Assembly: GCA_038255675.1 (NCBI GenBank)
Contig: JBBSLB010000002.1
Span: forward strand, 1 to 34,976
Source: Mycobacteriales bacterium
Lineage (GTDB): Bacteria; Actinomycetota; Actinomycetes; Mycobacteriales; SCTD01
DNA: 34,976 bases
Direction of reading: 5' to 3'
Position numbers and translations under genes: made by a program
Shown: in pieces, positions 3,244 through 20,859 of the stretch
How positions within the stretch are numbered: position 1 is the first letter of the stretch
How the letters are laid out: every line of letters starts with the position of its first letter
The notes under the pieces: generated by a model
Seen by the model: the letters and a program-made list of their open reading frames with translations, nothing else
Database searches by the model: none
Told to the model about the DNA's origin: nothing

Positions 3244-3340
3244 GACCTCGACCCTGCCACCTGCCCCGGCGGCGCTTCTCACCGGGCGGGTTCGTCCTGG
3301 ATCGTGGGCCGTTCCCGGCTGACCGCCTTACGCTCCGCGC

Positions 3341-4348
3341 GTGCAGGAGCGGCCGCTGGTCACCATCAGCAACCCGGCCGACCCGCGGCGGCCGGCCGAC
3401 GTCCTCGACGCCGACGACCCCGCGCCTGGGAACCCGAAGCGGCTGGTCGTCGTGGTCGGCGTCGTCCTCGCCCTGCTGGCCGGCGTCTCGGGCGTCGACG
3501 AGCTGCGCGAGCGGCGTGCCGCCGACGCGGAGGAACGTCGGCTGCAAGCAGTCCTCCAGGTCCAGCTGACCGACCGGTTCGGCCTTCTGCAGGCCACTGA
3601 CTTCGACGGCCGCACGCAGGAGGCGGTCCTGTCCCGGGCCCTCGGGCTCCGCAACAGCGGTCCCCGCCCGGTGGTGGTGGCGTCGGCCGCGGTCGACGGC
3701 CTGCGCCTGGTGGGCGGCCCGGTCGAGATCGCCCCCGGTCAGGAGGAGCGGCTGCTCCTCCAGCAGCGGCTGCCCTGCTCGCCGGAGCCGGGCTCCGCCA
3801 GCACCGGCCTTGCCGTGCTGTTCGGCATCCGCACCGGCGCCGGGATGCAGGAGCTCGAGCGGCTCCTCGACGAGGAGCTGACTGCGTACGGAGAGGACGC
3901 GCGGCGGGCCTGCGGCCTCGTGCCCCCGGGCGAGGCCGTCCAGCTGTTCTCCGAGCCGGGCGGGCCTCCGGTCGACGGCGTGCTCGACGTCCCGCTGAGC
4001 ATCGCGAACTTCGGCGCCCGCACGACCCAGCTGCTGGACCTGCAGGCGGGGAACGGGCTCACCGCGGAGCTCCTCGACGACACCGGGGGCCGCGTGTCCC
4101 TCCCCCTGGAGATCGGGCCCCGCCTGCCCGACGGCAGCACGGTCCAGCGGCCCTTCCGGCTACGGCTACGGGTGGTCGACTGCGCCCGCGTCGACGCCTC
4201 CGACACCCAGTCCTATGAGTTCGGCAGCGCCTTCACGCTGTCGTACGTCGTGGCCGACGACACGGAGCCGGAGGGGGCCGGGACGACGACGACCGTCCTG
4301 TACGACGCCGAGCCGGTGCGGGACCTTGTGGCGGACGCCTGTCCCTGA
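3341..4348 (+). CDS. Hypothetical single-pass membrane protein (paralog A; four conserved Cys)
   Basis: 335-aa ORF with a GTG start. It has one hydrophobic helix (LVVVVGVVLALLAGVSGV) followed by ELRERRAADAEERRL. It shares collinear motifs with the ORF at 5097-6044: ARRACGLVP, NGLTAxLL, (R/E)VxDCAxV and a C-terminal AC. Confidence 0.7.
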   Translation: MQERPLVTISNPADPRRPADVLDADDPAPGNPKRLVVVVGVVLALLAGVSGVDELRERRAADAEERRLQAVLQVQLTDRFGLLQATDFDGRTQEAVLSRALGLRNSGPRPVVVASAAVDGLRLVGGPVEIAPGQEERLLLQQRLPCSPEPGSASTGLAVLFGIRTGAGMQELERLLDEELTAYGEDARRACGLVPPGEAVQLFSEPGGPPVDGVLDVPLSIANFGARTTQLLDLQAGNGLTAELLDDTGGRVSLPLEIGPRLPDGSTVQRPFRLRLRVVDCARVDASDTQSYEFGSAFTLSYVVADDTEPEGAGTTTTVLYDAEPVRDLVADACP

Positions 4349-4379
4349 CCGGCGAGCGACCCGTGCTCGACTGGGAGAC

Positions 4380-5048
4380 ATGCGGATCGCGGCGCGCTTC
4401 AACGGACCCGTCGGCTCCGGCAACGGCGGCATCACCGCCGGCCGGCTGGCGGCCTACGTCGGCGCCGAGGTGGTCGAGGTGACGCTGCGACGCCCGCCGC
4501 CGCTCGACCGCGACCTGCGGGTCGACGCCTCCGGCGGCACCGCCCGGCTGTACGACGGTGGCCTTCTGGTGGCCGAGGCCGTCCCGTCGGCAGGACCGCT
4601 CGACGCGGGCCCCGCCGTCGACGTGGTGACGGCGCGCACGGCCGAGGCGTCGTTCGGCGGGCTCACCGACCACCCGTACCCGACCTGCTTCGCCTGCGGC
4701 ACCGAGCGCACCGACGGCCTCGGCCTGCGGCCCGGGCCGGTGGGCGACGGCGTCGTGGCGGGTGTGTGGGCGCCGGCTTCGGACGACCTCGTGCTGCTGT
4801 GGGCGGCGCTGGACTGCCCCGGCGGGTGGTCCTGGCCGGACCTGCCGAGCCGGCCGCTGGTCCTCGGCCGCATCGCGCTGCGGCGGCTGGGCCCGGTCGT
4901 CAGCGGACAGCCGCACGTCGTGACCGGCTGGACGACCGGCCAGGAGGGCCGCAAGGTGCACACCGGCACCGCACTGCGCAGCGCCGACGGCGAGCTGCTC
5001 GCCGTGGCGCGGGCGACCTGGCTGACCGTCGCGCCCGCCCCGGCCTGA
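4380..5048 (+). CDS. Hotdog-fold (PaaI-like thioesterase-like) protein
   Basis: ATG 4380 is preceded by GGGAGA. The product reads MRIAARFNGPVGSGNGGITAGRLA...HPYPTCFACGTERTDGLGL...GRKVHTGTALRSADGELLAVARATWL. The CFxCG and C-terminal beta-strand pattern are typical of PaaI/hotdog proteins. The track ORF start at 4215 overlaps the previous gene and was not used. Confidence 0.6.
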   Translation: MRIAARFNGPVGSGNGGITAGRLAAYVGAEVVEVTLRRPPPLDRDLRVDASGGTARLYDGGLLVAEAVPSAGPLDAGPAVDVVTARTAEASFGGLTDHPYPTCFACGTERTDGLGLRPGPVGDGVVAGVWAPASDDLVLLWAALDCPGGWSWPDLPSRPLVLGRIALRRLGPVVSGQPHVVTGWTTGQEGRKVHTGTALRSADGELLAVARATWLTVAPAPA

Positions 5049-5096
5049 GACTTCTGCGAAACACGTGACGGCGACCCCCGACGCTCCTACGGTCGG

Positions 5097-6044
5097 GTGG
5101 TGGACCGCCCGCCGGTGACGATCAGCGCTCCGGCGCGGCCCGGCGCGGAGCCGGACCTGCTCGTCGGCGGCGAGGACGCCGGGCTGGGCCCGGCCGGCCG
5201 GCGTCGGCTCAGGATCCTGGCTGCCGTCGCCGCCGGCGCCGTGCTCGGCTTGATGGTCACCGGCGAGGTGCGCGAGCGGCAGGCTGCCGACGCCGAGGAG
5301 CGGCGGCTGGCAGCGGCGCTCGACCTGACGGTCGAGCCGACCCACGCCGTCGAGCAGTGGGCGCGCTACGACGAGGCAGGACAGACCGCCGAGCTGGACA
5401 TCTCGGTGCACGTGCGCAACGACGGGCCGAGGGCTGTGCTGCTGCTGGCGGCCGCGCTGGGCCCGTGGGCCCTGCCGGACAAGGTGCCGGTGCCCGCAGG
5501 AGAGGTCGGCGAGCTGGTGCTGCAGCGCAGCGTGTCCTGCACGGCGGCGGCCCCCGAGGAGGTGGCCGTCAGCGGGCTGCAGGTGCAGGCCCGCACCGAC
5601 GCGGGCCTCCGCAGCACCACGCTGCCGGTGGACCTCCTGCTCCCGGCCGACGCGGCCCGCCGCGCCTGCGGGCTGGTGCCGTTCGAGGACGCCGTCACCG
5701 TCCGCTTCGCGAACCGACAGGAGCGCGACGAGGCCTACGAGGTCGAGCTGGAGGTGCGGACCGCCACCCGCCGGGCAATGCGGCTCGACGAGCTGCTTGC
5801 CGCCAACGGCCTCACGGCGGTGCTGCTGGGCCCCGGTGGCGAGCCCGGGCCGCCGCTGCCGTGGCCGATGGAGCCGCACTCCACGCTGCAGGTACGGCTG
5901 GAGGTCACGGACTGCGCGGCGGTGGCCGGTGCCATGGAGCAACCGCTGCTGCACCTGCTGCTGCACGACGAGGCTGGCACCGCCGCCACCTCTGCCCTGC
6001 CGGCCGACGACGTGCGGAGCGCGCTGCTCGACCGGGCCTGCTGA
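5097..6044 (+). CDS. Hypothetical single-pass membrane protein (paralog B of 3341-4348)
   Basis: 315-aa ORF reading MVDRPPVTISAPARPG... with TM helix ILAAVAAGAVLGLMV followed by EVRERQAADAEERRL, ARRACGLVPFEDAV, NGLTAVLL, VTDCAAV and C-terminal DRAC. It is collinear with paralog A. Confidence 0.7.
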   Translation: MVDRPPVTISAPARPGAEPDLLVGGEDAGLGPAGRRRLRILAAVAAGAVLGLMVTGEVRERQAADAEERRLAAALDLTVEPTHAVEQWARYDEAGQTAELDISVHVRNDGPRAVLLLAAALGPWALPDKVPVPAGEVGELVLQRSVSCTAAAPEEVAVSGLQVQARTDAGLRSTTLPVDLLLPADAARRACGLVPFEDAVTVRFANRQERDEAYEVELEVRTATRRAMRLDELLAANGLTAVLLGPGGEPGPPLPWPMEPHSTLQVRLEVTDCAAVAGAMEQPLLHLLLHDEAGTAATSALPADDVRSALLDRAC

Positions 6045-6068
6045 CACGCCGCCGACCCCGACGGAGCG

Positions 6069-6169
6069 CGCACGCAGCTGCACCCGGTTGCGACCAGGTG
6101 CGGGCGGCGCGAGCGCGAGCGGTCACACAGGGATCGGTGCGCGAGGCCAGGTGGGTGCAGCTGCGTGCG
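6069..6169. repeat. Perfect 17-bp inverted repeat (CGCACGCAGCTGCACCC / GGGTGCAGCTGCGTGCG) with a 67-nt spacer, in a convergent intergenic region
   Basis: Arms at 6069-6085 and 6153-6169 are exact reverse complements. Each arm contains the palindrome GCAGCTGC. The element lies between the stop of 5097-6044 (+) and the stop of 6205-7509 (-). Confidence 0.8.
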
Positions 6170-6204
6170 GCACCCGGCCGAGAACGCCGGCGGCAGTGCG
6201 CCGG

Positions 6205-7509
6205 TCAGCGTCCGGGTGGGCCGGCAAGCTGCCCCGGCTGAGGCTCGCGCGCGTCGTAGGCCCGGAACCGGGTGGCCCCCGCGGCAACCGCCGCCGTGAC
6301 GCCGACGACGAGCAGCCCGCCGGCGACCGACGCGCCCTGCAGCCCGACCAGCTCGGCGCCCGCCCCGGCCCGCGCGTCGCCGAGCCGCGGGCCGCCGGCG
6401 ACCACGACGATGAAGACGCCGCCGAGCCGGCCGCGCATCTCGTCGGGCGCCGCGGCTTGCAGGATCGCGGTGCGGAAGACCGCCGACACCATGTCGGCCA
6501 GCCCCGCCGCGGCCAGGCAGAGGACCGCCAGCCACAACACGTCGGCCAGCCCGAAGAGCGTGATCGACGCGCCCCACACGACGATCGCGGCGAGCACCGC
6601 GACGCCGTGCCGGTGCACCCGGCCGAGCCAGCCGGAGAACAGCGCACCGAGCAACGCACCGACCGCCAGCGAGGAGTAGAGGATCCCGGCCGTCTGCTCG
6701 CCGCCGCCGTAGACGTCCTGCGCCAGGGCGGGGAACAGCGCCCGCGGCATCGCGAAGACCATCGCCACGAGGTCGACGACGAACGTCATGAGCAGCACCT
6801 GCCGGCTGCGCAGGAACGACAGGCCCTCCAGCACGCTGGCCGTCCCGGCCCGCCGACCACCGCCCTCCGGGGGCATGGCCGGCAGCCCGGAGACCGCGAG
6901 CAGCGCCGCACCGAAGGTCACCGCGTCCAGGGCGTACGCCGCGCCATAGCCGACCTGGGCAACCAGCACGCCGGCCAGCAGCGGGCCGACCGTCACGGCC
7001 AGGTTGAACTCCACCTGCTTGAGCGCGTTCGCCGCAGGCAGCAGCTCCTTGCTCAGCAGCCGCGGGACGAACGCCTGTCGGGCAGGTGAGTCGATCGCGA
7101 AGATGCCTGCCTGGCAAGCGATCACGACGTAGAGCAGCCAGGTCTGCTCGAGATCGAGCAGGGCCTGGCCGACCAGCACGAGCGCGAGCAGCAGCTGGCC
7201 GGAGGTCGTGAGCAGGACCAGCCGGCGTCGGTCGACCGCGTCGGCGATCGCCCCGCCGTACAGCCCGAAGAAGATGAGCGGCAGCAGGCCGGCGACGCCC
7301 ACCAGGCCGACCGCGATGACCGACCGCGTCTGGGCGTAGACCTGCAGCGGGACGGCGACGACCGTGACCTGCGTCCCCAGGACCGAGACGGCGTCGCCGA
7401 ACAGCAGCCGGCGATAGGGCCGGGACACCCGCAGCGGGGTGAGGTCCAGCGCGGCCCCGCGCAGCCGGGCCGCCAGCCCCTGGCGGGTCTGGGCGGTCGG
7501 GCGGGTCAC
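6205..7509 (-). CDS. MFS transporter (MFS_3 / EntS-like family)
   Basis: 434-aa ORF with many hydrophobic helices. The N-terminus ...LRVSRPYRRLLFGDAVSVLGTQVTVVAVPLQVY is typical of the EntS/DUF894-type MFS family. The GTG start at 7509 overlaps the pdxH stop (GTGA). Confidence 0.85.
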   Translation of the reverse strand: MTRPTAQTRQGLAARLRGAALDLTPLRVSRPYRRLLFGDAVSVLGTQVTVVAVPLQVYAQTRSVIAVGLVGVAGLLPLIFFGLYGGAIADAVDRRRLVLLTTSGQLLLALVLVGQALLDLEQTWLLYVVIACQAGIFAIDSPARQAFVPRLLSKELLPAANALKQVEFNLAVTVGPLLAGVLVAQVGYGAAYALDAVTFGAALLAVSGLPAMPPEGGGRRAGTASVLEGLSFLRSRQVLLMTFVVDLVAMVFAMPRALFPALAQDVYGGGEQTAGILYSSLAVGALLGALFSGWLGRVHRHGVAVLAAIVVWGASITLFGLADVLWLAVLCLAAAGLADMVSAVFRTAILQAAAPDEMRGRLGGVFIVVVAGGPRLGDARAGAGAELVGLQGASVAGGLLVVGVTAAVAAGATRFRAYDAREPQPGQLAGPPGR

Positions 7510-8289: not shown

Positions 8290-10631
<2,342 letters not shown>

Positions 10632-10979: not shown

Positions 10980-11050
10980 ATCCCGGGCCGGCTGCGGCCC
11001 CGTACGGGCCTGCTTACCGGCCGCCTCCTTAACGGGCCGTGACGAAGTGA

Positions 11051-11113
11051 TGGACAACACACAAGAACGGGAGTAGAACCAACGAAACACAGATCGAACG
11101 GAGGTGAACCCAC
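11051..11113 (+). promoter_or_regulatory. Putative promoter/operator region of the PTS operon
   Basis: This is the only conspicuously lower-G+C stretch in the window. TGGACA (11051-11056), a 17-nt spacer and TAGAAC (11074-11079) resemble -35/-10 boxes. Direct repeats GAACGGGAG (11065-11073) and GAACGGAGG (11096-11104) are present, and the second overlaps the SD GGAGG before ATG 11114. Confidence 0.3.
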
Positions 11114-11875
11114 ATGTACGCCGAGGAGCGCCAGCAGTACATCGTCGGACTCGCCCGCAGTCGCGGCCGGGTCGACGTGGCCGAGCTGGCCGCCGAGCTC
11201 CAGGTCACCACCGAGACCGTTCGCCGCGACCTGACCATCCTGGAGCGGCAGGGCGTCCTGCGCCGGGTGCACGGCGGGGCCATCCCGGTGGAGCGGCTCG
11301 GCTTCGAGCCGGCGCTGGCGGCCCGTGACAGCGTCATGACCGCCGAGAAGGACCGCATCGCCAAGGCCGCGCTGGCCGAGCTGCCCCAGGAGGGCGCGAT
11401 CCTGCTCGACGCCGGCTCGACGACCGCCCGGCTGGCCGACCTGCTGCCGTCGGACCGGCCGCTCACGGTCGTCACCAACGCGCTGCCGTTGGCGCTGTCG
11501 CTGGTGTCCCGCCCGCACCTCACGGTGCTGCTGCTCGGCGGGCGCGTCCGCGGCCGGACCCTCGCCTCGGTCGACAGCTGGGCCACGGACGCCCTCGCCG
11601 GCACCTTCGTCGACGTCGCCTTCGTGGCCACCAACGGGGTGTCGGTGCGCCGCGGGCTGACGACCCCCGACCACGCCGAGGCCGCGACGAAGCGGGCGAT
11701 GATGGCCTCTGCAGCCCGCGTGGTGCTGCTCGCCGACCACACGAAGGTCGGGGTCGACCACCTCACCCGCTTCGGCGACCTGCACCAGGTCGACACGCTC
11801 ATCACCGACAGCGGGCTCGACGACCGCGCCACCGCCGAGCTCGAGGGCGCCGGACCGCGGGTGGTGCGCGCGTGA
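11114..11875 (+). CDS. DeoR/GlpR-family transcriptional repressor (FruR-like)
   Basis: 253 aa reading MYAEERQQYIVGLARSRGRVDVAELAAELQVTTETVRRDLTILERQGVLRRVHGGA..., i.e. an N-terminal DeoR HTH plus a C-terminal sugar-phosphate sensor domain. Confidence 0.9.
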   Translation: MYAEERQQYIVGLARSRGRVDVAELAAELQVTTETVRRDLTILERQGVLRRVHGGAIPVERLGFEPALAARDSVMTAEKDRIAKAALAELPQEGAILLDAGSTTARLADLLPSDRPLTVVTNALPLALSLVSRPHLTVLLLGGRVRGRTLASVDSWATDALAGTFVDVAFVATNGVSVRRGLTTPDHAEAATKRAMMASAARVVLLADHTKVGVDHLTRFGDLHQVDTLITDSGLDDRATAELEGAGPRVVRA

Positions 11876-12816
11876 TCGTCACCGTGACGCTGAACCCCAG
11901 CCTGGACCGCACCATCGAGGTCGGCGGCCTGGTCCGTGGCGCGCTGGTCCGCGGGACCTCGACGCGCGTGGACGCCGGCGGCAAGGGCGTCAACGTCGCT
12001 CGGGCGCTGACCGCCAACGGCGTGGCCGCCCGTGCCGTGCTGCCGCTCGGCGGGCCGGACGGCGAGCGCCTGCTGGACCTGCTCGCCTCCGCCGGGCTCG
12101 ACGTGGTGGCGGTCCCGGTCCGCAGCGCCACCCGCTCCAACGTCAGCCTGGTCGAGCCGGACGGGACGACGACGAAGGTCAACGAGCCGGGCGGACGCCT
12201 CGACCGCGACGACGTCGAGGCGCTGGTCGCCAGTGTGCTGGCTGCCGCCACGGGCGCCGACTGGGCCGTGCTGTGCGGCAGCCTGCCGCCGGGTGTGCCA
12301 CACGACGTCTACGCCCGCCTGTGCCGCGCCCTGCAGGCCGCCGGGACCAACGTCGCCGTCGACAGCAGCGGCTCGGCGCTCACCGCCGCCCTGGACGTCG
12401 GGCCCGCGCTCGTCAAGCCCAACCGCGAGGAGCTGGCCGAGACCGCCGGGCGTCCCCTGCTGACCCTGGGGGACGTCCTGACGGCGGCCGAGCAGCTGCG
12501 CGCACGTGGCGCCGGCAGCGTGCTGGCCAGCCTGGGCGCCGACGGCGCCCTGCTGGTCGAGCGAGCCGGCGTCCTGCGCGGCCACTCGACGGTGCTCGCC
12601 CCGCGCAGCTCGGTCGGGGCCGGCGACGCGATGCTCGCCGGCTTCCTGTCGGCCGGTGCCGCCGGCGCTCCCGCTCTTGCCACCGCCCTCGCCTGGGGCG
12701 CGGCCGCGGCCGGCCTGCCCGGCAGTCGCATGCCCCTTGCTTCCGACCTCCGGCCGGACGACGTCACCACCAGCCCGCTGCTCGACCGCACGACCCCGCT
12801 GTCCACGTCCCACTGA
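11872..12816 (+). CDS. fruK: PfkB-family ketohexose-phosphate kinase (1-phosphofructokinase / tagatose-6-P kinase class)
   Basis: 314 aa reading MIVTVTLNPSLDRTIEV...GGKGVNVARAL...KPNREEL...GAGDAMLAGF. The GTG start overlaps the DeoR stop (GTGA). Confidence 0.85.
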   Translation: MIVTVTLNPSLDRTIEVGGLVRGALVRGTSTRVDAGGKGVNVARALTANGVAARAVLPLGGPDGERLLDLLASAGLDVVAVPVRSATRSNVSLVEPDGTTTKVNEPGGRLDRDDVEALVASVLAAATGADWAVLCGSLPPGVPHDVYARLCRALQAAGTNVAVDSSGSALTAALDVGPALVKPNREELAETAGRPLLTLGDVLTAAEQLRARGAGSVLASLGADGALLVERAGVLRGHSTVLAPRSSVGAGDAMLAGFLSAGAAGAPALATALAWGAAAAGLPGSRMPLASDLRPDDVTTSPLLDRTTPLSTSH

Positions 12817-12832
12817 CCCAGGAGCGCACCCC

Positions 12833-14005
12833 ATGACCGCAGTCGCTGACGCAAAGCACCTAGAGGGAGCCGGGTTCCGCGCGCGCATCCAGCGCGGCGG
12901 CGGCTACCTCGCCGGCATGATCATGCCGAACATCGCTGCCTTCATCGCGTGGGGCCTGATCACCGCGATGTTCATCCCCACCGGCTGGATCCCGAACGAG
13001 CGGCTGGCCGAGCTGGTCGGCCCGATCATCACCGTGCTGCTGCCCGTCCTGATCGGCTACACCGGCGGGCGCCTCGTGCACGGCCAGCGCGGCGCGGTCG
13101 TCGGCGCCGTCGCCACCATGGGCGTGGTCGTCGGGACCGACATCCCGATGTTCCTGGGCGCCATGCTCATCGGCCCGGCCACCGCGTACGTCCTGAAGCT
13201 CATCGACGGGTTCATCCAGGACAAGGTCAAGGTCGGCTTCGAGATGCTGGTGGACAACTTCACCGCCGGCATCCTCGGCGTGCTGGCGGCACTCGCCGGG
13301 CTGCTCGGGATCGGCCCGGTCGTCGAGGGGCTCACCAAGGCGGCCGGCAACGGCGTGGACTTCCTCGTCGACACCGGCTTCCTGCCACTGGTCTCCCTGC
13401 TGGTCGAGCCCGCCAAGGTGCTCTTCCTCAACAACGCCATCAACTTCGGCGTTCTGTCCCCGCTCGGCGTCGCCGAGGCGACCGAGACCGGCAAGTCGGT
13501 GCTGTTCATGGTCGAGACCAACCCCGGCCCCGGCCTGGGAATCCTGCTGGCCTACTTCTTCTTCGGCCCGCGCCTGCTGCGCCTGTCCGCTCCCGGCGCC
13601 ATCGTCATCCACTTCCTCGGCGGGATCCACGAGATCTACTTCCCGTACGTCCTGATGAAGCCCAAGCTGATCCTCGCCGCCATCGCCGGCGGCGCCGCGG
13701 GCGTCGGCACGGCCGTCGTGACGGGTGCCGGCCTGGTCTCGACTCCCTCGCCCGGCAGCATCTTCGCCTACGCCGCGGTCACCCCCCGCGGAGGCTTCAT
13801 CCCGGTGATCCTGTCGATCCTGGTCGCCACAGCCGTGTCCTTCGCCGTCGCCTCGCTGCTGCTGGGCTTCGGCCGCGGCGAGAAGGCCGAGGAGGCGCCG
13901 CCGGTGCACGAGGACGCCGTCCCCGTGCAGGCATCGTCGGCCACAGCAGAGACGACCGCCCCCACGCACGCCCCGGCTATGCGCAACACCACCGCGGAGG
14001 CGTGA
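12833..14005 (+). CDS. PTS mannitol-class EIIC component (stand-alone)
   Basis: ATG 12833 follows AGGAG. The product reads ...RARIQRGGGYLAGMIMPNIAAFIAWGLITAMFIPTGWIPNERLAELVGPIITVLLPVLIGYTGGRLV...HFLGGIHEIYFPYVLMKP. This is near-collinear with my recollection of the E. coli MtlA EIIC domain. The upstream part of the track ORF (12506-12832) overlaps fruK out of frame. Confidence 0.9.
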   Translation: MTAVADAKHLEGAGFRARIQRGGGYLAGMIMPNIAAFIAWGLITAMFIPTGWIPNERLAELVGPIITVLLPVLIGYTGGRLVHGQRGAVVGAVATMGVVVGTDIPMFLGAMLIGPATAYVLKLIDGFIQDKVKVGFEMLVDNFTAGILGVLAALAGLLGIGPVVEGLTKAAGNGVDFLVDTGFLPLVSLLVEPAKVLFLNNAINFGVLSPLGVAEATETGKSVLFMVETNPGPGLGILLAYFFFGPRLLRLSAPGAIVIHFLGGIHEIYFPYVLMKPKLILAAIAGGAAGVGTAVVTGAGLVSTPSPGSIFAYAAVTPRGGFIPVILSILVATAVSFAVASLLLGFGRGEKAEEAPPVHEDAVPVQASSATAETTAPTHAPAMRNTTAEA

Positions 14006-14006
14006 G

Positions 14007-14315
14007 ATGCCAACAATTGCAGGCGCTTCCGTGACCAAAGTTGTCATCGCGTGCGATGCGGGGATGGGCAGCAGCGTCATGCTGGCCAGCCAGATGCGCA
14101 AGCGGCTGAAGAAGTACGACGTCGCCGTCGAGCACGTCGCGGTCAACGCGATCCCGGCCGACGCCCAGGTGGTGCTCTGCCACAGCGGGCTCGCCCAGCG
14201 CGCCCGCGGCACCGCCCCCGACGCGGTCGTCGTGCCGTTCCAGATCTTCATGGGCGACCCGGTCTTTGACCAGGTCGAGGCCGCGATCCGGGACGGCGGG
14301 ACCCTCGATGGGTGA
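14007..14315 (+). CDS. PTS mannitol-class EIIB component (stand-alone)
   Basis: 102 aa. VTKVVIACDAGMGSSVMLASQMRKRL matches the MtlA EIIB phospho-cysteine loop (IVACDAGMGSS). Confidence 0.88.
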   Translation: MPTIAGASVTKVVIACDAGMGSSVMLASQMRKRLKKYDVAVEHVAVNAIPADAQVVLCHSGLAQRARGTAPDAVVVPFQIFMGDPVFDQVEAAIRDGGTLDG

Positions 14316-14778
14316 CCAGCTCACCGCCGATGTGCTGCAGCTCGAGGGCGTCCGCCTCGGCCTGACCGCGGTCGACAAGTGGGATGCCGTCCGCCAGGCC
14401 GGCGAGCTGCTCGTGGAGCTCGGGGCGGTCGAGCCCGACTACGCGCCCGCCATGCTCGAGCGCGAGCGCTCGGTCTCGACCTTCATCGGCGAGGGCGTCG
14501 CCATCCCGCACGGCACCGACGCCGCCCGGGCGCTGGTGCTGCGGACCACGCTCGCGGTCCTGCAGTTCCCGGCCGGCGTGGACTGGGACGGCAACGACGC
14601 CCGCATCTGCGTCGCCATCGCCGCCAGCGGCGAGGAGCACGTCGAGGTGCTGTCCGCCCTGGCTGTCGTGCTCATGGACGCCGAGGCCGCCGAGCGCCTC
14701 CGCTCCGCCACCGACCCCCAGGACGTGCTGGCGCTGCTCGCCGGCCTGTCCGCAGACGACGAGGAGACCCCCGCATGA
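14308..14778 (+). CDS. PTS mannitol-class EIIA component (PTS_EIIA_2, stand-alone)
   Basis: ATG 14308 overlaps the EIIB stop (ATGGGTGA). ...VEPDYAPAMLERERSVSTFIGEGVAIPHGT... matches the MtlA EIIA phospho-histidine region. Confidence 0.88.
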   Translation: MGDQLTADVLQLEGVRLGLTAVDKWDAVRQAGELLVELGAVEPDYAPAMLERERSVSTFIGEGVAIPHGTDAARALVLRTTLAVLQFPAGVDWDGNDARICVAIAASGEEHVEVLSALAVVLMDAEAAERLRSATDPQDVLALLAGLSADDEETPA

Positions 14779-15815
14779 GAGTGGCCCGCTTCTACGAGCC
14801 CGGCGACGTACGGCTGGAGGACGCCCCGGAGCCGCAGGTCGGCGCCGGCGAGGTGAAGATCCGTGTGCGCGCCTGCTCGACCTGCGGCACGGACGTGAAG
14901 ATCCTCAACCACGGGCACCAGCACATCGACCCGCCCCGGGTCATGGGGCACGAGGTGGCCGGCGAGGTCGTCGACGTCGGTGCCGGCGTCAGCGGCTGGG
15001 CCGCCGGCGACCGCGTCCAGGTCATTGCGGCCGTCCCGTGCGGGACGTGCGCAGAGTGCGCGCGCGGCCGCATGACCATCTGCCCGAACCAGACCTCCGT
15101 CGGCTACCACTACGAGGGCGGCTTCGCGGAGTACCTCGTCGTGCCGCAGCAGGTGCTGGCCGTCGACGGCCTGAACCGGATTCCCGACGGCATCAGCTTC
15201 GCCGAGGCCTCGGTCGCCGAGCCACTGGCCTGCGTGCTGAACGGCCAGGAGCTCGCCGGTGTCGGACCGGGCGACGTCGTCGTCGTCGTGGGCGCCGGGC
15301 CGATCGGCTGCCTGCACGTGCGGCTGGCCCGCTCGCGCGGCGCCGCGCAGGTGCTGCTCGTCGAGCTCAACCGGTCGCGGCTCGACCTGTCGGCCGGCGT
15401 CGTCGCCCCCGACGAGGCGATCTGCAGCGCCGAGACCGACGCCGTGGACGCCGTCCTCAAGGCCACCGACGGCCGCGGCGCCGACGTCGTGATCACGGCG
15501 GCAGCCTCGGGCCAGGCCCAGGAGGAGGCGTTGCTCATGGCGGCGCGCGGCGGCCGGGTCAGCCTGTTCGGCGGACTGCCCAAGGACAAGCCGACCATCA
15601 CCCTGGACTCCAACCTCGTGCACTACCGCGAGCTGACGGTCGTCGGCGCCAACGGTTCGAGCCCGTCGCACAACAAGCGGGCGCTGGAGCTCATTGCCTC
15701 AGGTGACGTCCCGGTGCTCGACCTCATCACGCACCGGCTCCCCCTCGAGGGGGTGCTCGAGGCCTTCGGCATCGTCGCGCGCGGCGAGGCCATCAAGGTC
15801 ACTGTCGAGCCGTAA
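14775..15815 (+). CDS. Zn-dependent MDR-family alcohol/polyol(-phosphate) dehydrogenase
   Basis: ATG 14775 overlaps the EIIA stop (ATGA). The product reads MRVARFYEPGDVRLEDAPEPQVGAGEVKIRVRACSTCGTDVKILNHGHQHIDPPRVMGHEVAGEVVDVG...CGTCAECARG...VVGAGPIGC. It has the catalytic and structural Zn ligand patterns and the GxGxxG motif. Confidence 0.85.
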   Translation: MRVARFYEPGDVRLEDAPEPQVGAGEVKIRVRACSTCGTDVKILNHGHQHIDPPRVMGHEVAGEVVDVGAGVSGWAAGDRVQVIAAVPCGTCAECARGRMTICPNQTSVGYHYEGGFAEYLVVPQQVLAVDGLNRIPDGISFAEASVAEPLACVLNGQELAGVGPGDVVVVVGAGPIGCLHVRLARSRGAAQVLLVELNRSRLDLSAGVVAPDEAICSAETDAVDAVLKATDGRGADVVITAAASGQAQEEALLMAARGGRVSLFGGLPKDKPTITLDSNLVHYRELTVVGANGSSPSHNKRALELIASGDVPVLDLITHRLPLEGVLEAFGIVARGEAIKVTVEP

Positions 15816-15851
15816 GCCACGTCCCTGCAGCATTTCTCGAGGAGGAACTCC

Positions 15852-16136
15852 ATGGCACGACGCGAGGCGACCATCGGCTCACGGGTCGGGCTGCACGCCC
15901 GGCCGGCCGCGATCTTCGTTCAGGCCAGCGCTGCGGCGGGCGTCCCGGTGAAGGTGGGCAAGCCCGACGGGAAGCTCGTCGACGCCCGCAGCATGCTCGG
16001 TGTGCTGGCGCTCGGCGCCAGGAACGGCGACACCGTGGTGCTCGAGGCCGAGGGTGACGGCGCAGAGGCGGCGCTTGATTCCCTGGTCGCGCTGCTCCAG
16101 CAGGACCACGACGAGCCGGCCGCCGCGGATGCCTGA
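15852..16136 (+). CDS. ptsH: Phosphocarrier protein HPr
   Basis: 94 aa. GGAGGA precedes the ATG. The product MARREATIGSRVGLHARPAAIFVQ... contains the His-15 motif GLHARPA. Confidence 0.92.
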   Translation: MARREATIGSRVGLHARPAAIFVQASAAAGVPVKVGKPDGKLVDARSMLGVLALGARNGDTVVLEAEGDGAEAALDSLVALLQQDHDEPAAADA

Positions 16137-17793
16137 CCTGGCTACGGCCCTGAGCGGCATCGCCGTCTCCCCCGGCACGGGTGCGGGGCCAGTGTTCTGC
16201 CTGGCCCCGCCCCCGGCACTGCCCGCCCAGGACGGTCCGGTCGACGACCTGACCGCCGAGGCGAGCCGCGCCGTCGCGGCGCTCGAGCAGGTCGCCGCCG
16301 ACCTCGAGCGCCGCGCGGCCACGGCGACGAGCACCGCCGCCGACGTGCTGCAGGCGCAGGCGCTCATGGCCCGCGACCCGGTGCTGGCCGAGTCGGTCGC
16401 CGGGCGGGTGCTCGAGGGGGCTGGCGCGCCGTGGGCCGTCGACGCCGCCCTGCGCGAGCAGCAGGCCGTCTTCACCGACCTGGGCGGCTACCTCGGTGAG
16501 CGCGCGGCCGACCTGGACGACATCCGGGCGCGCGCGGTCGCTGTCTTGCTCGGGCTGGCGATGCCGGGCGTGCCGTCACCGGGAGTGCCGTTCGTCCTGG
16601 TCGCCGATGACCTCGCGCCGGCCGACACCGCGCAGCTCGACCGCAGCCAGGTGCGAGCCCTGGTCACCGCTCGCGGCGGCCCCACCAGCCACACCGCGAT
16701 CCTGGCCCGTGCGCTGGGCATCCCGGCGGTCGTCTGCTGTCGCGGCATCCTCGACCTGGCCGACGGCACGTCCGTGCTCGTCGACGGCACCACGGGTCAG
16801 GTCCGGCAGATCCGCGAGGACGAGGTCGCCGGCGCCCAGGCCGAGGCCGACGCCGCCCGTCTCGCGCAGGCCGCGGTCGCCGGCCCAGGCCGGACCGCCG
16901 ACGGCCACCCCGTCAAGCTGCTGCGCAACGTCGGCTCGGTTGAGGACCTCGCAGGCACCGCCGGAGACGAGTCCTTCGAGGGCGTCGGCCTGTTCCGTTC
17001 CGAGTTCCTCTACCTCGGTCGGACCTCCGCGCCGAGCGCGCAGGAGCAGGAGGCTGCCTACGTCGAGATGTTCGAGGCGATGGGCGGCGCGAAGATCGTG
17101 CTTCGCACCCTCGACGCCGGCGCCGACAAGCCGCTGCCGTTCCTGGACATGGAGGCCGAGGACAACCCGGCCCTGGGAGTACGAGGGCTGCGCGTCGCCC
17201 GGCGCCGGCCCGAGGTGCTCGCCGACCAGCTCGGGGCGGTCGCCCGCGCCGCCGAGCGGACCGGCGCCGACGTCTGGGTGATGGCACCGATGGTCTCTAC
17301 CGTCGAGGAGGCGGCAGCCTTCGCCGAGCAGGTGCACGCGCTCGGCCTGCCCCGGGCCGGGGTGATGGTCGAGGTGCCGGCCGCCGCGCTGCAGGCCGCG
17401 CGGATCCTCGAGGTCGTCGACTTCCTCAGCATCGGCACGAACGACCTGAGCCAGTACACGCTGGCGACCGACCGCATGAACGGCGAGCTGGCCGACCTGC
17501 TCGACCCGTGGCAACCGGCGCTGCTGCAGCTGCTCGCCATGTGCGCGGCGGCCGGCCGTGAGGCCGGCAAGTCGGTGAGCATCTGCGGCGAGGCGGCGGC
17601 CGATCCGCTGCTGGCCCCCGTCCTGGTCGGCATGGGCATCACCAGCCTGTCGATGTCGGCCGCGTCGCTGCCGGCCGTCCGGGCGGCGATGGCCACCCGA
17701 ACACTGGAGTCGTGCGAGAACCTCGCCCGGCTCGCGCTCGCGGCCCGCGACGCCACCTCGGCCCGGGCCGCTGTGGCCGAGCGGTCCGCCTGA
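16129..17793 (+). CDS. ptsI: Phosphoenolpyruvate-protein phosphotransferase (PTS Enzyme I)
   Basis: 554 aa from ATG 16129, which overlaps the ptsH 3' end. Motifs present: GIAVSPGTGAGPV, GGPTSHTAILARALGIPAVV (phospho-His), FRSEFLY, and IGTNDLSQYTLATDR...C (catalytic Cys in SICGE). Confidence 0.93.
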   Translation: MPDLATALSGIAVSPGTGAGPVFCLAPPPALPAQDGPVDDLTAEASRAVAALEQVAADLERRAATATSTAADVLQAQALMARDPVLAESVAGRVLEGAGAPWAVDAALREQQAVFTDLGGYLGERAADLDDIRARAVAVLLGLAMPGVPSPGVPFVLVADDLAPADTAQLDRSQVRALVTARGGPTSHTAILARALGIPAVVCCRGILDLADGTSVLVDGTTGQVRQIREDEVAGAQAEADAARLAQAAVAGPGRTADGHPVKLLRNVGSVEDLAGTAGDESFEGVGLFRSEFLYLGRTSAPSAQEQEAAYVEMFEAMGGAKIVLRTLDAGADKPLPFLDMEAEDNPALGVRGLRVARRRPEVLADQLGAVARAAERTGADVWVMAPMVSTVEEAAAFAEQVHALGLPRAGVMVEVPAAALQAARILEVVDFLSIGTNDLSQYTLATDRMNGELADLLDPWQPALLQLLAMCAAAGREAGKSVSICGEAAADPLLAPVLVGMGITSLSMSAASLPAVRAAMATRTLESCENLARLALAARDATSARAAVAERSA

Positions 17794-17797
17794 GCGG

Positions 17798-18886
17798 TCA
17801 GCCACGGCGGCGCGGCTCGAGCTCCAGCGGCGCGTAGTAGTGCTCGGCGCCTTCCCGCTCGACGTCGGCGAGCCAGTGCCCGTCGTACTGCTCGGTCGGG
17901 CCCTGAGCCGGGTCGGCGAGCGACCAGGCCTGGCGGCGGTAGGTCCAGTTGTCGGGCTGCAGCCGGTGGCTCTCCCGGAACCACGCAACGGCCGGCTCCG
18001 GCGACCCGGCGGCGTGCAGGTGCTGGCCGAGGGCGAAGGCCGCGGCCGCCTGGGCCTGCTCCGCCGGGCGCGGGCGGGAGCGCTCGAGGACCTCCTCGGC
18101 CGACAGCGCGAAGCGGCTGGCGGGGCCGTGTGCGACCCAGTCGCGCAGCGCGCCGACGTAGCCCTCCGGGTCGATCTGCATCGCCTTGAGGTGGGGCTGC
18201 ACGGTGCGCAGCCGGCTCACCGCCGCCGCCGGCAGCGACGCCACGACCTTGGGGTCCTCGAGGTCGTAGCTGGCAAAGGTCGGAGGCGCCGGGTAGGCCG
18301 TCTCGGGCGGGCGGACGACAGTGCCGTCCTCGTCGACCCAGATGCCCGACGGGACGTTGACCACGCCGAACAGCTCACCGAGCCGGTGTCCGCTGTCCAC
18401 CACGACCGGGAAGTCGACGCCGGCGGCGAACGGCGCCGCGGCCGCGGCGCTGGCGTCCATCGCCACGCTGTACAGCTCGAAGCCCGAGGGCGCGAGCTCA
18501 GTGCGCAGTGCCTGCCAGACCGGCAGGTCGAAGCGGCAGCCTCACCAGCTCGCCCAGGCGGCGATCAGCACCTTCTTCCCGCGCAGGGCAGCGAGGGGGA
18601 AGGGCTCGCCCGTCAGCGTCGGGAGCACCAGGTCGGGGGCCTGGACGGTGGTCATCGCCCGTCCACCGCCCGACGGGCCGAGCGACCAGAGACCGGCCGG
18701 CTCGTCGTGCAGCAGCGGCCGCCCCATCCGCTCGGCGAAGGCGGCGAGGTCGACCTGGCCGTCACGAAGCGTGCCGGGCGGCAGCGGCACGCACTGCTCC
18801 TTGCGGCACGCCCCCTCGGGCTTGACCTCCCAGCCGGTCTCCCGCGCGAGCTGGTCGACGGGCACCCGAGATGTCGTGGAGATCAC
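17798..18886 (-). CDS. Thioredoxin-fold ResA/TlpA-like selenoprotein candidate (W-A-x-x-U-G-C motif); the in-frame TGA at 18544-18542 is read as selenocysteine
   Basis: The two track ORFs (tail of 18542-19801 and 17798-18466) are in the same frame, separated only by one TGA. Read-through gives ...APDLVLPTLTGEPFPLAALRGKKVLIAAWASW-U-GCRFDLPVWQALRTELAPSGFELYSVAMDAS...VNVPSGIWVDEDGTVV.... This is a continuous thioredoxin/redoxin fold with the TGA at the position of the first redox Cys. GC3 stays high across the TGA. The start is uncertain: GTG 18886 is preferred because the GC3-rich segment GWEVKPEGACRKEQCVPL is coding. Alternatives are GTG 18865 and ATG 18655. I see no signal peptide or TM helix. 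Confidence 0.72.
18511..18527 (-). promoter_or_regulatory. Candidate bacterial SECIS stem-loop for the WAxxUGC gene
   Basis: The minus-strand RNA is CCUGCC-GGUCU-GGCAGG, a 6-bp stem with a 5-nt loop. It starts 14 nt after the UGA. As I recall, the loop GGUCU resembles the apical G-G-U-C loop of the E. coli fdhF SECIS. Confidence 0.55.
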
Positions 18887-18907
18887 ACCGCAGGTTACCG
18901 TCAGGGA

Positions 18908-20344
18908 GTGCAGCTGCCGGACGGGTGGGTCGTCGTGCTCAAGCGCGACTGCCCCACGTGCACCCTCGTCGAGCCGGTGCTGCACCAGCTGGCTGATGCC
19001 GGCGGGCTGACCGTCTACAGCCAGGACGACCCGGGCTTCCCCGCCGGCCTGACCGTCGTCGACGACAGCGAGCTCGAGTCGAGCTGGCGGCTGCAGGTCG
19101 ACACCGTCCCGACGCTGCTGCGGGTGGAGGACGGCGCCGAGGTCGCCCGTGCCGTCGGTTGGCTCCGCAGCTCCTGGGAGGAGCTGACCGGGGTGACCGG
19201 GCTCGGCCCCGACCTGCCCGACCACCGGCCCGGCTGCGGCTCCCGCTCGGTCGAGTGGGGCGTCGAGGAGGAGCTCGACCGGCGGTACGGCGAGCGCATC
19301 CTGACCGCCCGCACCGTCGAGCTGGCCGACCTCGAGGACGAGTACGAGGCGGCGTACGCCCGCGGCTGGACCGACGGCCTGCCTGTCGTCCCGCCGACCG
19401 AGGCGCGGGTTCTGGCGATGCTGAAGGGCACGTCGCGCGCGCCGGACGAGGTCGTCGCCGTCGTGCCGCCGGACCTGGTGGAGTGCACCGTCGAGAAGGT
19501 CGCGGTCAACGCGGTGCTGGCCGGCTGCCTGCCCGAGCACCTGCCGGTGGTCCTGGCCGCCGTTGCCGCGGCCTGCACCGACGGCTTCAACATGCACGGC
19601 GTGCTCGCCACGACGATGCCGGCCGGCCCGGTCGTCGTCGTGAACGGCCCTGTGGCGCGGGCGATCGGCATGAACAGCGGGGTGAACGCGCTCGGGCAGG
19701 GCAACCGCGCCAACGCCACGATCGGCCGGGCGCTGCAGCTCGTGGTCCGCAACGTCGGCGGCGGCCGCCCCGGCGAGGTCGACCGCGGCAGCCAGGGCCA
19801 ACCGGGCAAGTACACCGCCTGCTTCGCCGAGGACGAGGAGGGCTCCCCCTTCGACCCCCTGGCCGAGAGCCGTGGGGTCGAGGGCTCGGCCCTCACCCTG
19901 TTCGCCGGCTGCGGCTGGTGGCCCGTCGTCGACCAGCTGTCACGCACCCCGGAGTCGCTGGCCCGCAGCCTCGCGGCGGGCCTGCGCGGCGTCGGCCACC
20001 CCAAGCTGGCGATCGTCTTCGACGCGCTGCTGGTGCTCAGCCCCGAGCACGGCCGGGTCTTCCGCGAGGCCGGCTGGGACCGCGCGCGGCTGCTGGCGGA
20101 GCTCGACGGGCTGCTGACCGTCCCGGCCGCTGAGCTCTCCCGCGGTGTCGACGGCATGGCCGAGGGGATGCCACCGGCCATGATCGCCGGTTGGGGCCAG
20201 GCCGTGCCGCTGCCGAAGTTCCGCCCCGGCGGCCTGCTCATCGCCCACGCCGGCGGCACCGCCGGGCTGTTCTCGACCATCGTGCCCGGCTGGGTCAGCG
20301 GCGCCGGCGGCAGCGAGCCCACCACCGTCCCGATAGGAGCCTGA
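18908..20344 (+). CDS. Thioredoxin-like (CPTC) domain fused to a ~350-aa conserved domain of unknown function; partner of the two selenoprotein candidates
   Basis: Only the 3' part of the 834-aa track ORF (17840-20344) is credible. From GTG 18908 it reads VQLPDGWVVVLKRDCPTCTLVEPVLHQLADAGGLTVYSQDD...DTVPTLLRVEDG (thioredoxin-like), then ...ARGWTDGLPVVPPTEARVLAML...VAVNAVLAGCLPEHLPVVLAA...GVNALGQGNRANATIGRALQLVVRNVGGGRPGEVD.... The region upstream of 18908 is antisense to the ResA-like gene. The stop overlaps the next start (TGATG). Confidence 0.7.
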   Translation: MQLPDGWVVVLKRDCPTCTLVEPVLHQLADAGGLTVYSQDDPGFPAGLTVVDDSELESSWRLQVDTVPTLLRVEDGAEVARAVGWLRSSWEELTGVTGLGPDLPDHRPGCGSRSVEWGVEEELDRRYGERILTARTVELADLEDEYEAAYARGWTDGLPVVPPTEARVLAMLKGTSRAPDEVVAVVPPDLVECTVEKVAVNAVLAGCLPEHLPVVLAAVAAACTDGFNMHGVLATTMPAGPVVVVNGPVARAIGMNSGVNALGQGNRANATIGRALQLVVRNVGGGRPGEVDRGSQGQPGKYTACFAEDEEGSPFDPLAESRGVEGSALTLFAGCGWWPVVDQLSRTPESLARSLAAGLRGVGHPKLAIVFDALLVLSPEHGRVFREAGWDRARLLAELDGLLTVPAAELSRGVDGMAEGMPPAMIAGWGQAVPLPKFRPGGLLIAHAGGTAGLFSTIVPGWVSGAGGSEPTTVPIGA

Positions 20345-20859
20345 TGCGCGTCCTGCTGGATCCCACGTCCGAGCGCGTTCCCTCGACGCGCACCCTGAAC
20401 CCGCGGCCTGCCTCGCTCGACGGACTGACGGTCGGGCTGCTCGACATCTCCAAGGCGCGCGGTGACGTGCTGCTCGACCGGCTGGAGTCCCGGCTCGTGG
20501 CCGATGGGGTGACCGTCCGGCGCTACGCCAAGCCGACCTTCGCCAAGCCCGCGCCGGTTGACCTGCGGCACGAGATCGCCGTGCAGTGCGAGGTGGTCAT
20601 CGAGGCGCTCGCCGATTGAGGCAGTTGCGCGTCGTGCAGTGTGCACGACATCGCCGACCTCGAGGCCCGCGGCCTGGTGGGGGTCTTCCTGGCCAGCAGC
20701 GAGTTCCAGGACGCCGCCGACGCGCAGTCGCGCGCACTCGGCCTTGCCGTGTCCTACGTCCTGGTGCCGCACCCGATCCAGGACCGCACCGACGAGGAGA
20801 TGACGGCGCTGGCCGATGCGGCGTACGACGCCGTTCTGGCGGCAATTACGGACAGATAG
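20344..20859 (+). CDS. UGSC-motif small selenoprotein candidate; the in-frame TGA at 20617-20619 is read as selenocysteine (U92)
   Basis: ATG 20344 is preceded by TAGGAG. Track ORFs 20191-20619 and 20641-20859 are in the same frame, 21 nt apart. Read-through gives ...CEVVIEALAD-U-GSCASCSVHDIADLEARGLVGVFLASSEFQDAADAQSRALGL...VLVPHPIQDRTDEEM...ITDR. This is 171 aa with the motif U-x-x-C-x-x-C. Confidence 0.75.
20631..20649 (+). promoter_or_regulatory. Candidate bacterial SECIS stem-loop for the UGSC gene
   Basis: GUCGUGCA-GUG-UGCACGAC is a perfect 8-bp stem, or 7 bp with loop AGUGU. It starts 11 nt after the UGA, and the loop contains G-U. This is the canonical spacing for bacterial SECIS elements. 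Confidence 0.6.

Follow-up and report, generated by a model that had tools for sequence, protein, structure and literature searches.

The locus described here lies in contig JBBSLB010000002.1 of a Mycobacteriales bacterium (assembly GCA_038255675.1, positions 1 to 34,976, forward strand); this whole stretch of 34,976 nucleotides, referred to as the window, has a GC content of 73.6%. Three genes, designated A, B and C (Table 1), stand alone in it between a phosphotransferase system (PTS) enzyme I gene (end 17793) and small hypothetical genes (start 20890). Genes A and C are predicted to encode selenoproteins, each with one in-frame TGA as selenocysteine (Sec, U) codon; the product of gene B consists of a thioredoxin-fold domain and a large domain designated X. 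The ATG of C and the stop codon of B have one base in common (TGATG). The motifs, frames and coordinates given for the three genes in the initial annotation were reproduced on re-reading, and so was the TGATG overlap; the start of C, placed there at 20345, is the ATG at 20344.

Table 1: Features of the A, B and C locus (window coordinates).
Feature	Position	Strand	Description
Gene A	17798..18886	minus	GTG 18886 to stop 17798; 362-aa ResA-like WAxxUGC selenoprotein (predicted)
A/B divergent spacer	18887..18907		21 nt between the GTG starts of A and B
Gene B	18908..20344	plus	GTG 18908 to TGA 20342-20344; 478 aa
Gene C	20344..20859	plus	ATG 20344; 171-aa UGSC-family selenoprotein (predicted)
Sec codon, gene A	18542..18544	minus	TGA, codon 115
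Sec codon, gene C	20617..20619	plus	TGA, codon 92
SECIS-like hairpin, gene A	18511..18527	minus	CCUGCC-GGUCU-GGCAGG; begins 17 nt past the U of UGA
SECIS-like hairpin, gene C	20632..20648	plus	UCGUGCA-GUG-UGCACGA; begins 13 nt past UGA
PGCGS motif in the linker of B	19229-19243	plus	B residues 108-112; C110 codon 19235-19237

For scoring against profile hidden Markov models (HMMs) the TGA codons of A and C were read as Cys. Gene A: NCBIfam NF041054 (ResA-like WAxxUGC), 467.4 bits (curated cut-off 300), protein residues 2–355 aligned to positions 2–353 of the 354 in the profile; Pfam AhpC-TSA and Redoxin matched residues 82–191. Gene C: NCBIfam NF041046 (UGSC family (seleno)protein), 146.1 bits (curated cut-off 125); Pfam PF24696, 141.9 bits (cut-off 25). 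The two NCBI family labels quoted in the initial annotation were correct; the selenoproteins are not novel, both being members of these curated families. The G+C content at third codon positions is 0.90–0.95 on either side of each TGA, in agreement with the GC3-rich coding sequence described earlier.

The codon aligned with the TGA of C was compared in 108 loci, 29 of them found via B and 79 via the UGSC alignment. It is a stop codon in every one (TGA 98, TAG 10), in Actinomycetota, Gammaproteobacteria, Deltaproteobacteria/Myxococcota (Myxococcales) and Acidobacteriota, and the protein flanks are highly conserved on both sides of it (EALAD-U-GSC[TA]SC). Homologs of C were counted in a database of 5.8 billion proteins: 33 of the 37 full-length homologs have CGSC at the Sec position, and 79 of the 83 short ones end exactly at ...EALAD, having been truncated by gene callers at the Sec codon. 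Most database copies of C are stubs of 94 aa, which bears out the earlier remark that open reading frame (ORF) calling fragments these genes. The codon aligned with the TGA of A is TGA in nine related loci and TGC or TGT in about 29 more distant ones (Frankia, Acidimicrobiia, Microthrixaceae, Gordonia, Nocardioides, some Proteobacteria). At both positions, then, orthologs carry Cys or Sec and continue into conserved sequence, not into unrelated ends.

The stem-loops noted after both TGAs, at the distance of a selenocysteine insertion sequence (SECIS), were found to be conserved, with compensatory changes. The 7-bp stem of the C hairpin is kept in 24 loci from four phyla with GC contents of 48–76%; the compensatory changes are G-C to A-U and U-A to A-U, and synonymous sites in the hairpin region are invariant, e.g., a rare AGT Ser codon. 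The A hairpin is present in nine of nine Sec-form loci and shows one compensatory change (C-G to U-A); mean folding of the region was −14.2 kcal/mol for Sec forms versus −10.5 kcal/mol for Cys forms, a modest difference, as the peptide encoded there is conserved as well. By sequence and folding, both hairpins are predicted to be bacterial SECIS elements, situated just downstream of the UGA and with G in the apical loop. Single-sequence folding of the two downstream regions was unremarkable (z-scores −1.1 and +1.0), and the support for the hairpins therefore comes from the comparative alignments only; Rfam gave no RNA family in the window and matched neither hairpin.

Genes of the Sec machinery were seen beside B and C in other genomes. 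In a Halioglobus sp. metagenome-assembled genome (MAG; locus L026:1-6181) B and C are followed, after about 1 kb, by selA (2743-4155), selB (4080-6077) and tRNA-Sec(UCA) (6088-6181) in a row, and in another gammaproteobacterium (L019) tRNA-Sec lies 8 kb upstream of B. The window, which does not cover the whole genome, contains none of selA, selB, selC and selD, and no tRNA was found in it by ARAGORN. A strict scan of the window for ORFs split by one TGA returned the TGA of C only and no third selenoprotein candidate; the known TGA of A was missed by it, and the scan is not exhaustive.

On this comparative evidence A and C do encode selenocysteine and belong to two catalogued families, as the initial annotation had proposed on the grounds that a chance stop or a sequencing error was unlikely. 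That the TGAs are true stops, produced by sequencing errors, pseudogenes or split genes, agrees with the reporting of gene C as two fragments by gene callers and is otherwise hardly credible in view of the stop in one and the same column of 108 loci from several phyla with conserved sequence beyond it, the Cys at the same position in homologs, the two conserved hairpins and the scores of A and C above the cut-offs of curated selenoprotein models. For annotation, three ORF fragments should be joined to give two selenoprotein genes.

Ten loci (L005:11698, L008:11698, L009:11698, L075, L077, L095, L113, L124, L133 and L134) have TAG in place of TGA at the UGSC Sec position; they comprise nine Geodermatophilus/Blastococcus records and one unclassified Actinomycetota MAG. 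The flanks are the same as in TGA forms, and so is the downstream hairpin in L005 and L009, the two loci checked for it. Mukai et al. reportedly described a UAG-decoding tRNA-Sec in Geodermatophilaceae in 2016; TAG at the UGSC position fits that account.

UGSC protein (gene C). The motif is U92-G-S-C95-A-S-C98, in the context A-D-[TGA]-G-S-C-A-S-C. U92 and C95 do not vary among UGSC members; C98 is kept in at least 90% of them and missing in some, L029 and P0252 for example. A UGSC-containing protein was listed in 2007 as a selenoprotein of unknown function and recorded in Hyphomonas neptunium (PMC1976440), and in the Global Ocean Sampling (GOS) data of 2008 UGSC was among the most abundant selenoprotein families, with 255 Sec versus 21 Cys forms and an enrichment in non-marine waters (PMC2398784). 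It was still uncharacterised in reviews of 2022 and 2026 (PMC9312934, PMC13188914), and no paper giving UGSC a function or naming a partner was found in the literature. Sec forms dominate likewise in the loci compared here: the best 79 UGSC-centred genome loci, drawn from at least 599 species genomes, are all Sec forms. Gene C is a full-length member of the family with the same D-U-G-S-C motif, length, Sec position and downstream hairpin, and no family-level difference was noted; what is added to the family by the present analysis is a near-obligate partner X, the occurrence of both gene and fusion orders, and a flavodoxin-like model. A fusion of UGSC to a conserved domain named 'Unknown_1', which may be domain X, has been described (PMC2398784).

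The fold of UGSC was taken from natural Cys-form homologs. The model of a natural Cys-form fusion of X and UGSC (P0242) had a predicted local distance difference test score (pLDDT) of 87.4 and a predicted TM-score (pTM) of 0.88. Its UGSC part matched flavodoxin-like alpha/beta/alpha proteins (Foldseek: probability ~1, target TM-scores 0.5–0.55), viz. lumazine synthase, CheY-like receivers, flavin mononucleotide (FMN) reductases and the flavodoxin domain of flavodiiron proteins; the UGSC domain is thus modelled as flavodoxin-like, not thioredoxin-like as suggested in 2008. In the same model CGSC is placed at the junction of a beta-strand and the next helix. Such strand-to-helix junctions are a common site for reactive Cys and Sec residues. 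The search of C against PDB sequences gave one chance-level match only (E = 0.94).

Protein of gene B. The layout is as follows: thioredoxin-fold domain, residues 1 to ~100, with C15-P-T-C18; linker with PGCGS (C110); domain X, residues ~130–478 (~345 aa). An AlphaFold2 model built from a 55-sequence alignment was confident (pLDDT 94.8, pTM 0.81). The N-terminal domain alone gave Foldseek matches at probability 1.0 to dozens of thioredoxins (target TM-scores 0.57–0.74); the Pfam Thioredoxin HMM was not significant, and the thioredoxin call is accordingly made at the level of the fold only. Pfam gave no match to full-length B at E ≤ 0.01 and none to domain X (residues 130–478) at E ≤ 10, and NCBIfam gave none to X either; a family-profile search of X against PDB sequences at E ≤ 10 gave 0 matches. 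The earlier description of B as a CPTC thioredoxin-like domain fused to a large domain that could not be assigned was therefore upheld, and a plain "thioredoxin" label is unsuited to this protein. The best Foldseek match of X was class I fumarate hydratase, which was rejected as the fold of X (probability <0.5, TM-score 0.2, root-mean-square deviation >14 Å).

Domain X is a large family: in a library of 1.84 billion proteins, being cluster representatives at 50% identity, 5,838 matches were obtained at E ≤ 1e-3 and 1,328 at E ≤ 1e-30. Its conserved motifs are GWTDGLPVVPPT, NAVMAGC (C207, 96%), VNGP, RANATIGRA, GGGxPG, PGK, CFAExEE (C305, 87%) and a C-terminal AGG; D156, P159, A205, G206, G247, R274 and G323 are invariant. 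Of 120 close homologs composed of thioredoxin domain and X, all have CPTC and 119 have PGCGS. The C-G-S of this linker motif echoes the U-G-S of the partner selenoprotein; PGCGS may provide a cysteine on a swinging arm or imitate the UGSC loop.

Linkage of B and C. All 29 B-centred loci have C downstream of B (one with a gap of 2 kb), and B precedes C on the same strand, at a gap of 0–155 nt, in 77 of the 79 UGSC-centred loci, one of the other two being cut by the contig end. The same order is seen with Cys-form UGSC genes, which overlap the B homolog ahead of them (51–57% identity) by 4 nt. X and UGSC are also fused naturally, as X-UGSC and as UGSC-X; the Sec-containing fusions are cut at the Sec codon in the databases (P0170 and P0205 end there, P0200 starts just after it), and P0242 and P0252 are complete Cys-form fusions with CGSC. 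As judged from gene order and fusions, B and C belong together functionally as a near-obligate pair. Of the three-gene cluster originally described, and of the conserved neighbourhood expected for it, the B-C pair was retained (29 of 29 B-centred and 77 of 78 informative UGSC-centred loci); A as a conserved member was not, its adjacency being restricted to the window and seven related genomes.

Three kinds of module were found at the N-terminus of X, and all of them are disulfide-reducing: a thioredoxin CxxC domain, as in the window, a Pfam Redoxin/AhpC-TSA domain, and a ferredoxin-thioredoxin reductase catalytic chain. The last (PF02943) stands in place of the thioredoxin domain in P0169 (L069:970-2935, L070:975-2940); it is Cys-rich (CPC...CPC...CHC), and a Sec-split UGSC gene lies immediately upstream. 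This arrangement implies ferredoxin-driven versions of the system. X also occurs alone (~345 aa), with the UGSC gene directly after it (L066) or before it (L067). The near-obligate partnership of X and UGSC, with interchangeable reductant modules, is the main outcome of the comparison; both selenoprotein families were already known.

The invariant pair of X and UGSC, a third module that varies and is always disulfide-reducing, and the conserved chain of Cys and Sec positions (C15/C18, C110, C207/C305, U92/C95/C98) lead to the reading of B-C as a thiol/selenol relay reductase of two proteins that contains its own thioredoxin module, A being separate and probably co-regulated in this clade; the balance of the evidence inclines to this reading, which is held with some reserve. 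Domain X of B, with the conserved Cys residues C207 and C305 and numerous invariant Asp, Arg, Asn and Glu residues, would form the catalytic or substrate-binding body. C would dock on X and bring to it the reactive U92-x-x-C95(-x-x-C98) centre; Sec would act on an oxidised substrate bound by X and end as a selenenylsulfide with C95, which is perhaps shuffled to C98. The CPTC domain of B, possibly through the linker Cys110, would re-reduce the selenenylsulfide or disulfide in each turnover. A cellular reductant would accordingly donate electrons to CPTC, from which they would reach the UGSC Se/S centre and the X cysteines and, last, the oxidised substrate. The comparisons above show Sec decoding, the linkage and fusions of B and C, the fold assignments and the conserved motifs; the docking of C on B, the direction of electron flow, the identity of the nucleophile and a small-molecule substrate are proposed here from sequence and models.

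A wider formulation, according to which B-C would be an unrecognised, widespread two-component selenoenzyme with X as a fold without a solved relative, UGSC as the Sec-bearing active-site subunit and interchangeable electron-input modules, is put forward tentatively and falls somewhat short of an even chance. If it is true, B-C represents a new class of selenium-dependent reductase in aerobes. UGSC, counted since 2008 among the leading selenoprotein families in surface waters and so far without a functional handle, is now tied to one large protein with its own reductant module; moreover, the natural all-cysteine versions of X/UGSC can be expressed without Sec machinery, which makes the function of an orphan family experimentally approachable.

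Several observations weigh against the relay reductase. One true exception was met among the 78 informative UGSC-centred loci (L122), with no X within 4 kb even when a profile search was included. A duplicated X (~715 aa, P0185, L068) has no UGSC nearby in the one case checked. Foldseek searches of X against the PDB gave nothing at E ≤ 1e-3 with either of two models (B and the fusion P0242), so that there is no relative indicating the chemistry. The genes around B-C are lineage-specific across the three locus sets and name no substrate; thiolase, MaoC hydratase, acyl-CoA dehydrogenase, flavin reductase, branched-chain amino-acid ATP-binding cassette (ABC) transport, HhH-GPD, DUF2817, SBP_bac_5 and MlrC were seen, a neighbourhood with a slight bias to acyl-CoA or peptide metabolism that is too weak to decide on either.

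In a Cys-form UGSC lineage (L151:4495-5607 and L152:1508-2602) the UGSC gene overlaps at its end with a DUF2817 gene, giving a three-gene operon. SBP_bac_5 and MlrC-type genes lie near this operon, and SBP_bac_5 is found also beside the duplicated X (P0185); these neighbours give a faint hint of peptide or amino-acid-derived substrates for B-C.

The main alternative to the relay reductase is that UGSC is a dedicated electron carrier only, i.e., a seleno-analogue of thioredoxin, and that X does the chemistry via C207/C305, the thioredoxin domain and UGSC serving as successive or alternative reductants. In its favour are the two conserved Cys and the many invariant polar residues of X and the occurrence of X without UGSC in some genomes; beside the fusion of ferredoxin-thioredoxin reductase and X, furthermore, the separate UGSC gene sits where thioredoxin would, as a substrate of the reductase. 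The strong preference for Sec, seen in the GOS data (255 Sec and 21 Cys forms, PMC2398784) and in each of the best 79 genome loci, is however typical of a catalytic nucleophile rather than of a shuttle, and UGSC is modelled as flavodoxin-like, not thioredoxin-like. A role of UGSC as a mere shuttle is, on balance, unlikely, though it deserves serious consideration.

In the next alternative, a single selenium-dependent reductase resembling glycine or D-proline reductase in construction would have A, B and C as its three subunits. In its favour, the divergent starts of A and B are separated by 21 nt, with a conserved core between them, in the window and seven related genomes; redox motifs occur in all three proteins; and a ResA-like character is shared by A and the N-terminal domains of some B homologs. 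Against this, A is absent from 22 of the 29 B-centred and 77 of the 79 UGSC-centred loci; conversely, B-C is missing within 6 kb of A in 32 of 36 A loci, two of these 32 (L034, L036) being Sec-form, and no conserved neighbour of any kind was found for A among the A loci. At E ≤ 10, C and X match no Pfam family other than UGSC and none of GRDA, GRDB and Gly_reductase, and a pyruvoyl-type proprotein is not evident. As a general rule the three-subunit enzyme is thus largely refuted by the comparison of loci, and it is improbable for the window as well.

Slightly less probable still is a function of B-C in the handling of metals, metalloids or chalcogens (e.g., binding or trafficking of Hg, As, Se or persulfide), with U-x-x-C-x-x-C as a set of ligands and not a redox couple: U/C-x-x-C-x-x-C does resemble metal- or cluster-binding motifs, and several bacterial selenoprotein families in reviews are metal-related (PMC13188914), but the third Cys is missing in L029 and P0252, every module fused to X is a disulfide reductase and none a metallochaperone, and no metal-resistance genes were found near B-C in the window and the comparison loci.

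The proposed relay reductase was compared with known systems. Glycine, sarcosine, betaine and D-proline reductases (GrdA, GrdB, GrdE, PrdA, PrdB) follow the same logic, a small Sec protein with a U/C-x-x-C/U centre acting together with a larger substrate-binding protein, and their oxidised Se-S centre is re-reduced by the thioredoxin system, as is proposed for B-C. They differ from it in several respects: no homology is detectable, B-C has neither a pyruvoyl proprotein nor GrdC/D-like partners, its hosts are aerobic soil and aquatic Actinomycetota and Gammaproteobacteria, and its thioredoxin module is fused to the large subunit. The resemblance to these reductases pointed out in the initial annotation can hence be kept as an analogy of logic only; a relation beyond that is opposed by the missing GRDA, GRDB and Gly_reductase matches and by the flavodoxin-like model of UGSC.

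Thioredoxin-coupled reductases with cysteine relays include fusions of MsrA/MsrB with thioredoxin, such as PilB, and thioredoxin-coupled ArsC. They have in common with B-C a nucleophile in which Sec and Cys are interchangeable, a cascade of resolving Cys residues (here U92, C95 and C98) and a fused thioredoxin-fold reductant; B-C gave no sequence or fold match to Msr or ArsC, however, and its catalytic body X has no known relative. The catalytic subunit of ferredoxin:thioredoxin reductase (PF02943), which replaces the thioredoxin domain of B on X in one lineage, with UGSC adjacent, and does not occur in the window, supports the N-terminal module as the electron input by way of comparison only.

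ResA-like protein (gene A). The protein consists of an N-terminal Cx4C module (CRKEQC), a Redoxin/AhpC-TSA-type thioredoxin fold (residues ~80–192) with W-U-G-C, and a C-terminal extension of ~165 aa; the Sec codon stands in the context A-W-A-S-W-[TGA]-G-C. The Cx4C and AWASW[U/C]GC motifs are conserved in about 40 homologs. A is, by its motifs and distribution, a ResA-like oxidoreductase separate from B-C, with an unusual U-G-C centre in which one residue stands between Sec and Cys. It is a full-length member of NF041054 with W-A-S-W-U-G-C and a Redoxin-type fold, and it differs from the family in its divergent adjacency to B-C, which is found in this clade only. The family NF041054 is, from the motif, probably the 'Prx-like (UGC-containing)' family of PMC2398784.

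A adjoins B-C in the window and in seven related MAGs of Frankiales/Mycobacteriales type (L001, L002, L003, L006, L027, L033/L071, L103) only. The spacer between the divergent GTG codons is 21–25 nt long, and its core GCAGG[CT]TA[GC]CGTC is invariant in the window, L001, L002, L003, L006, L027 and L071; it gives a −10-like TANNNT hexamer on both strands, 5–8 nt ahead of each start codon. Since the spacer has no room for 5' leaders, transcription of both genes would be leaderless, and the arrangement suggests overlapping promoters for two such transcripts and, therefore, co-regulation of A and B, which is probable for the clade of the window. A scan for E. coli-type promoters and terminators gave no sites, as expected for an actinobacterium of 74% GC. 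A functional link of A to B-C is possible within this clade; broader conservation in its support was not found.

Frankia spp. (L037, L038, L040, L041, L042) have two Cys-form A paralogs about 1.4 kb apart on the same strand, at about 6001-7040 and 8430-9650, with the motifs AWASWCGCRED and AWASWCGCAHD.

On the other side of gene A, a block composed of DeoR, PfkB, PTS (EIIC, EIIB, EIIA), alcohol dehydrogenase, HPr and enzyme I genes (window 11047-17799) is found in the window and in L002 and is missing in the closest relatives L001 and L003, in which an aminotransferase class-V gene (window counterpart 9510-10631) directly abuts gene A. The difference at 11047-17799 beside the selenoprotein genes is, from this comparison of sequences, a recent insertion or deletion.

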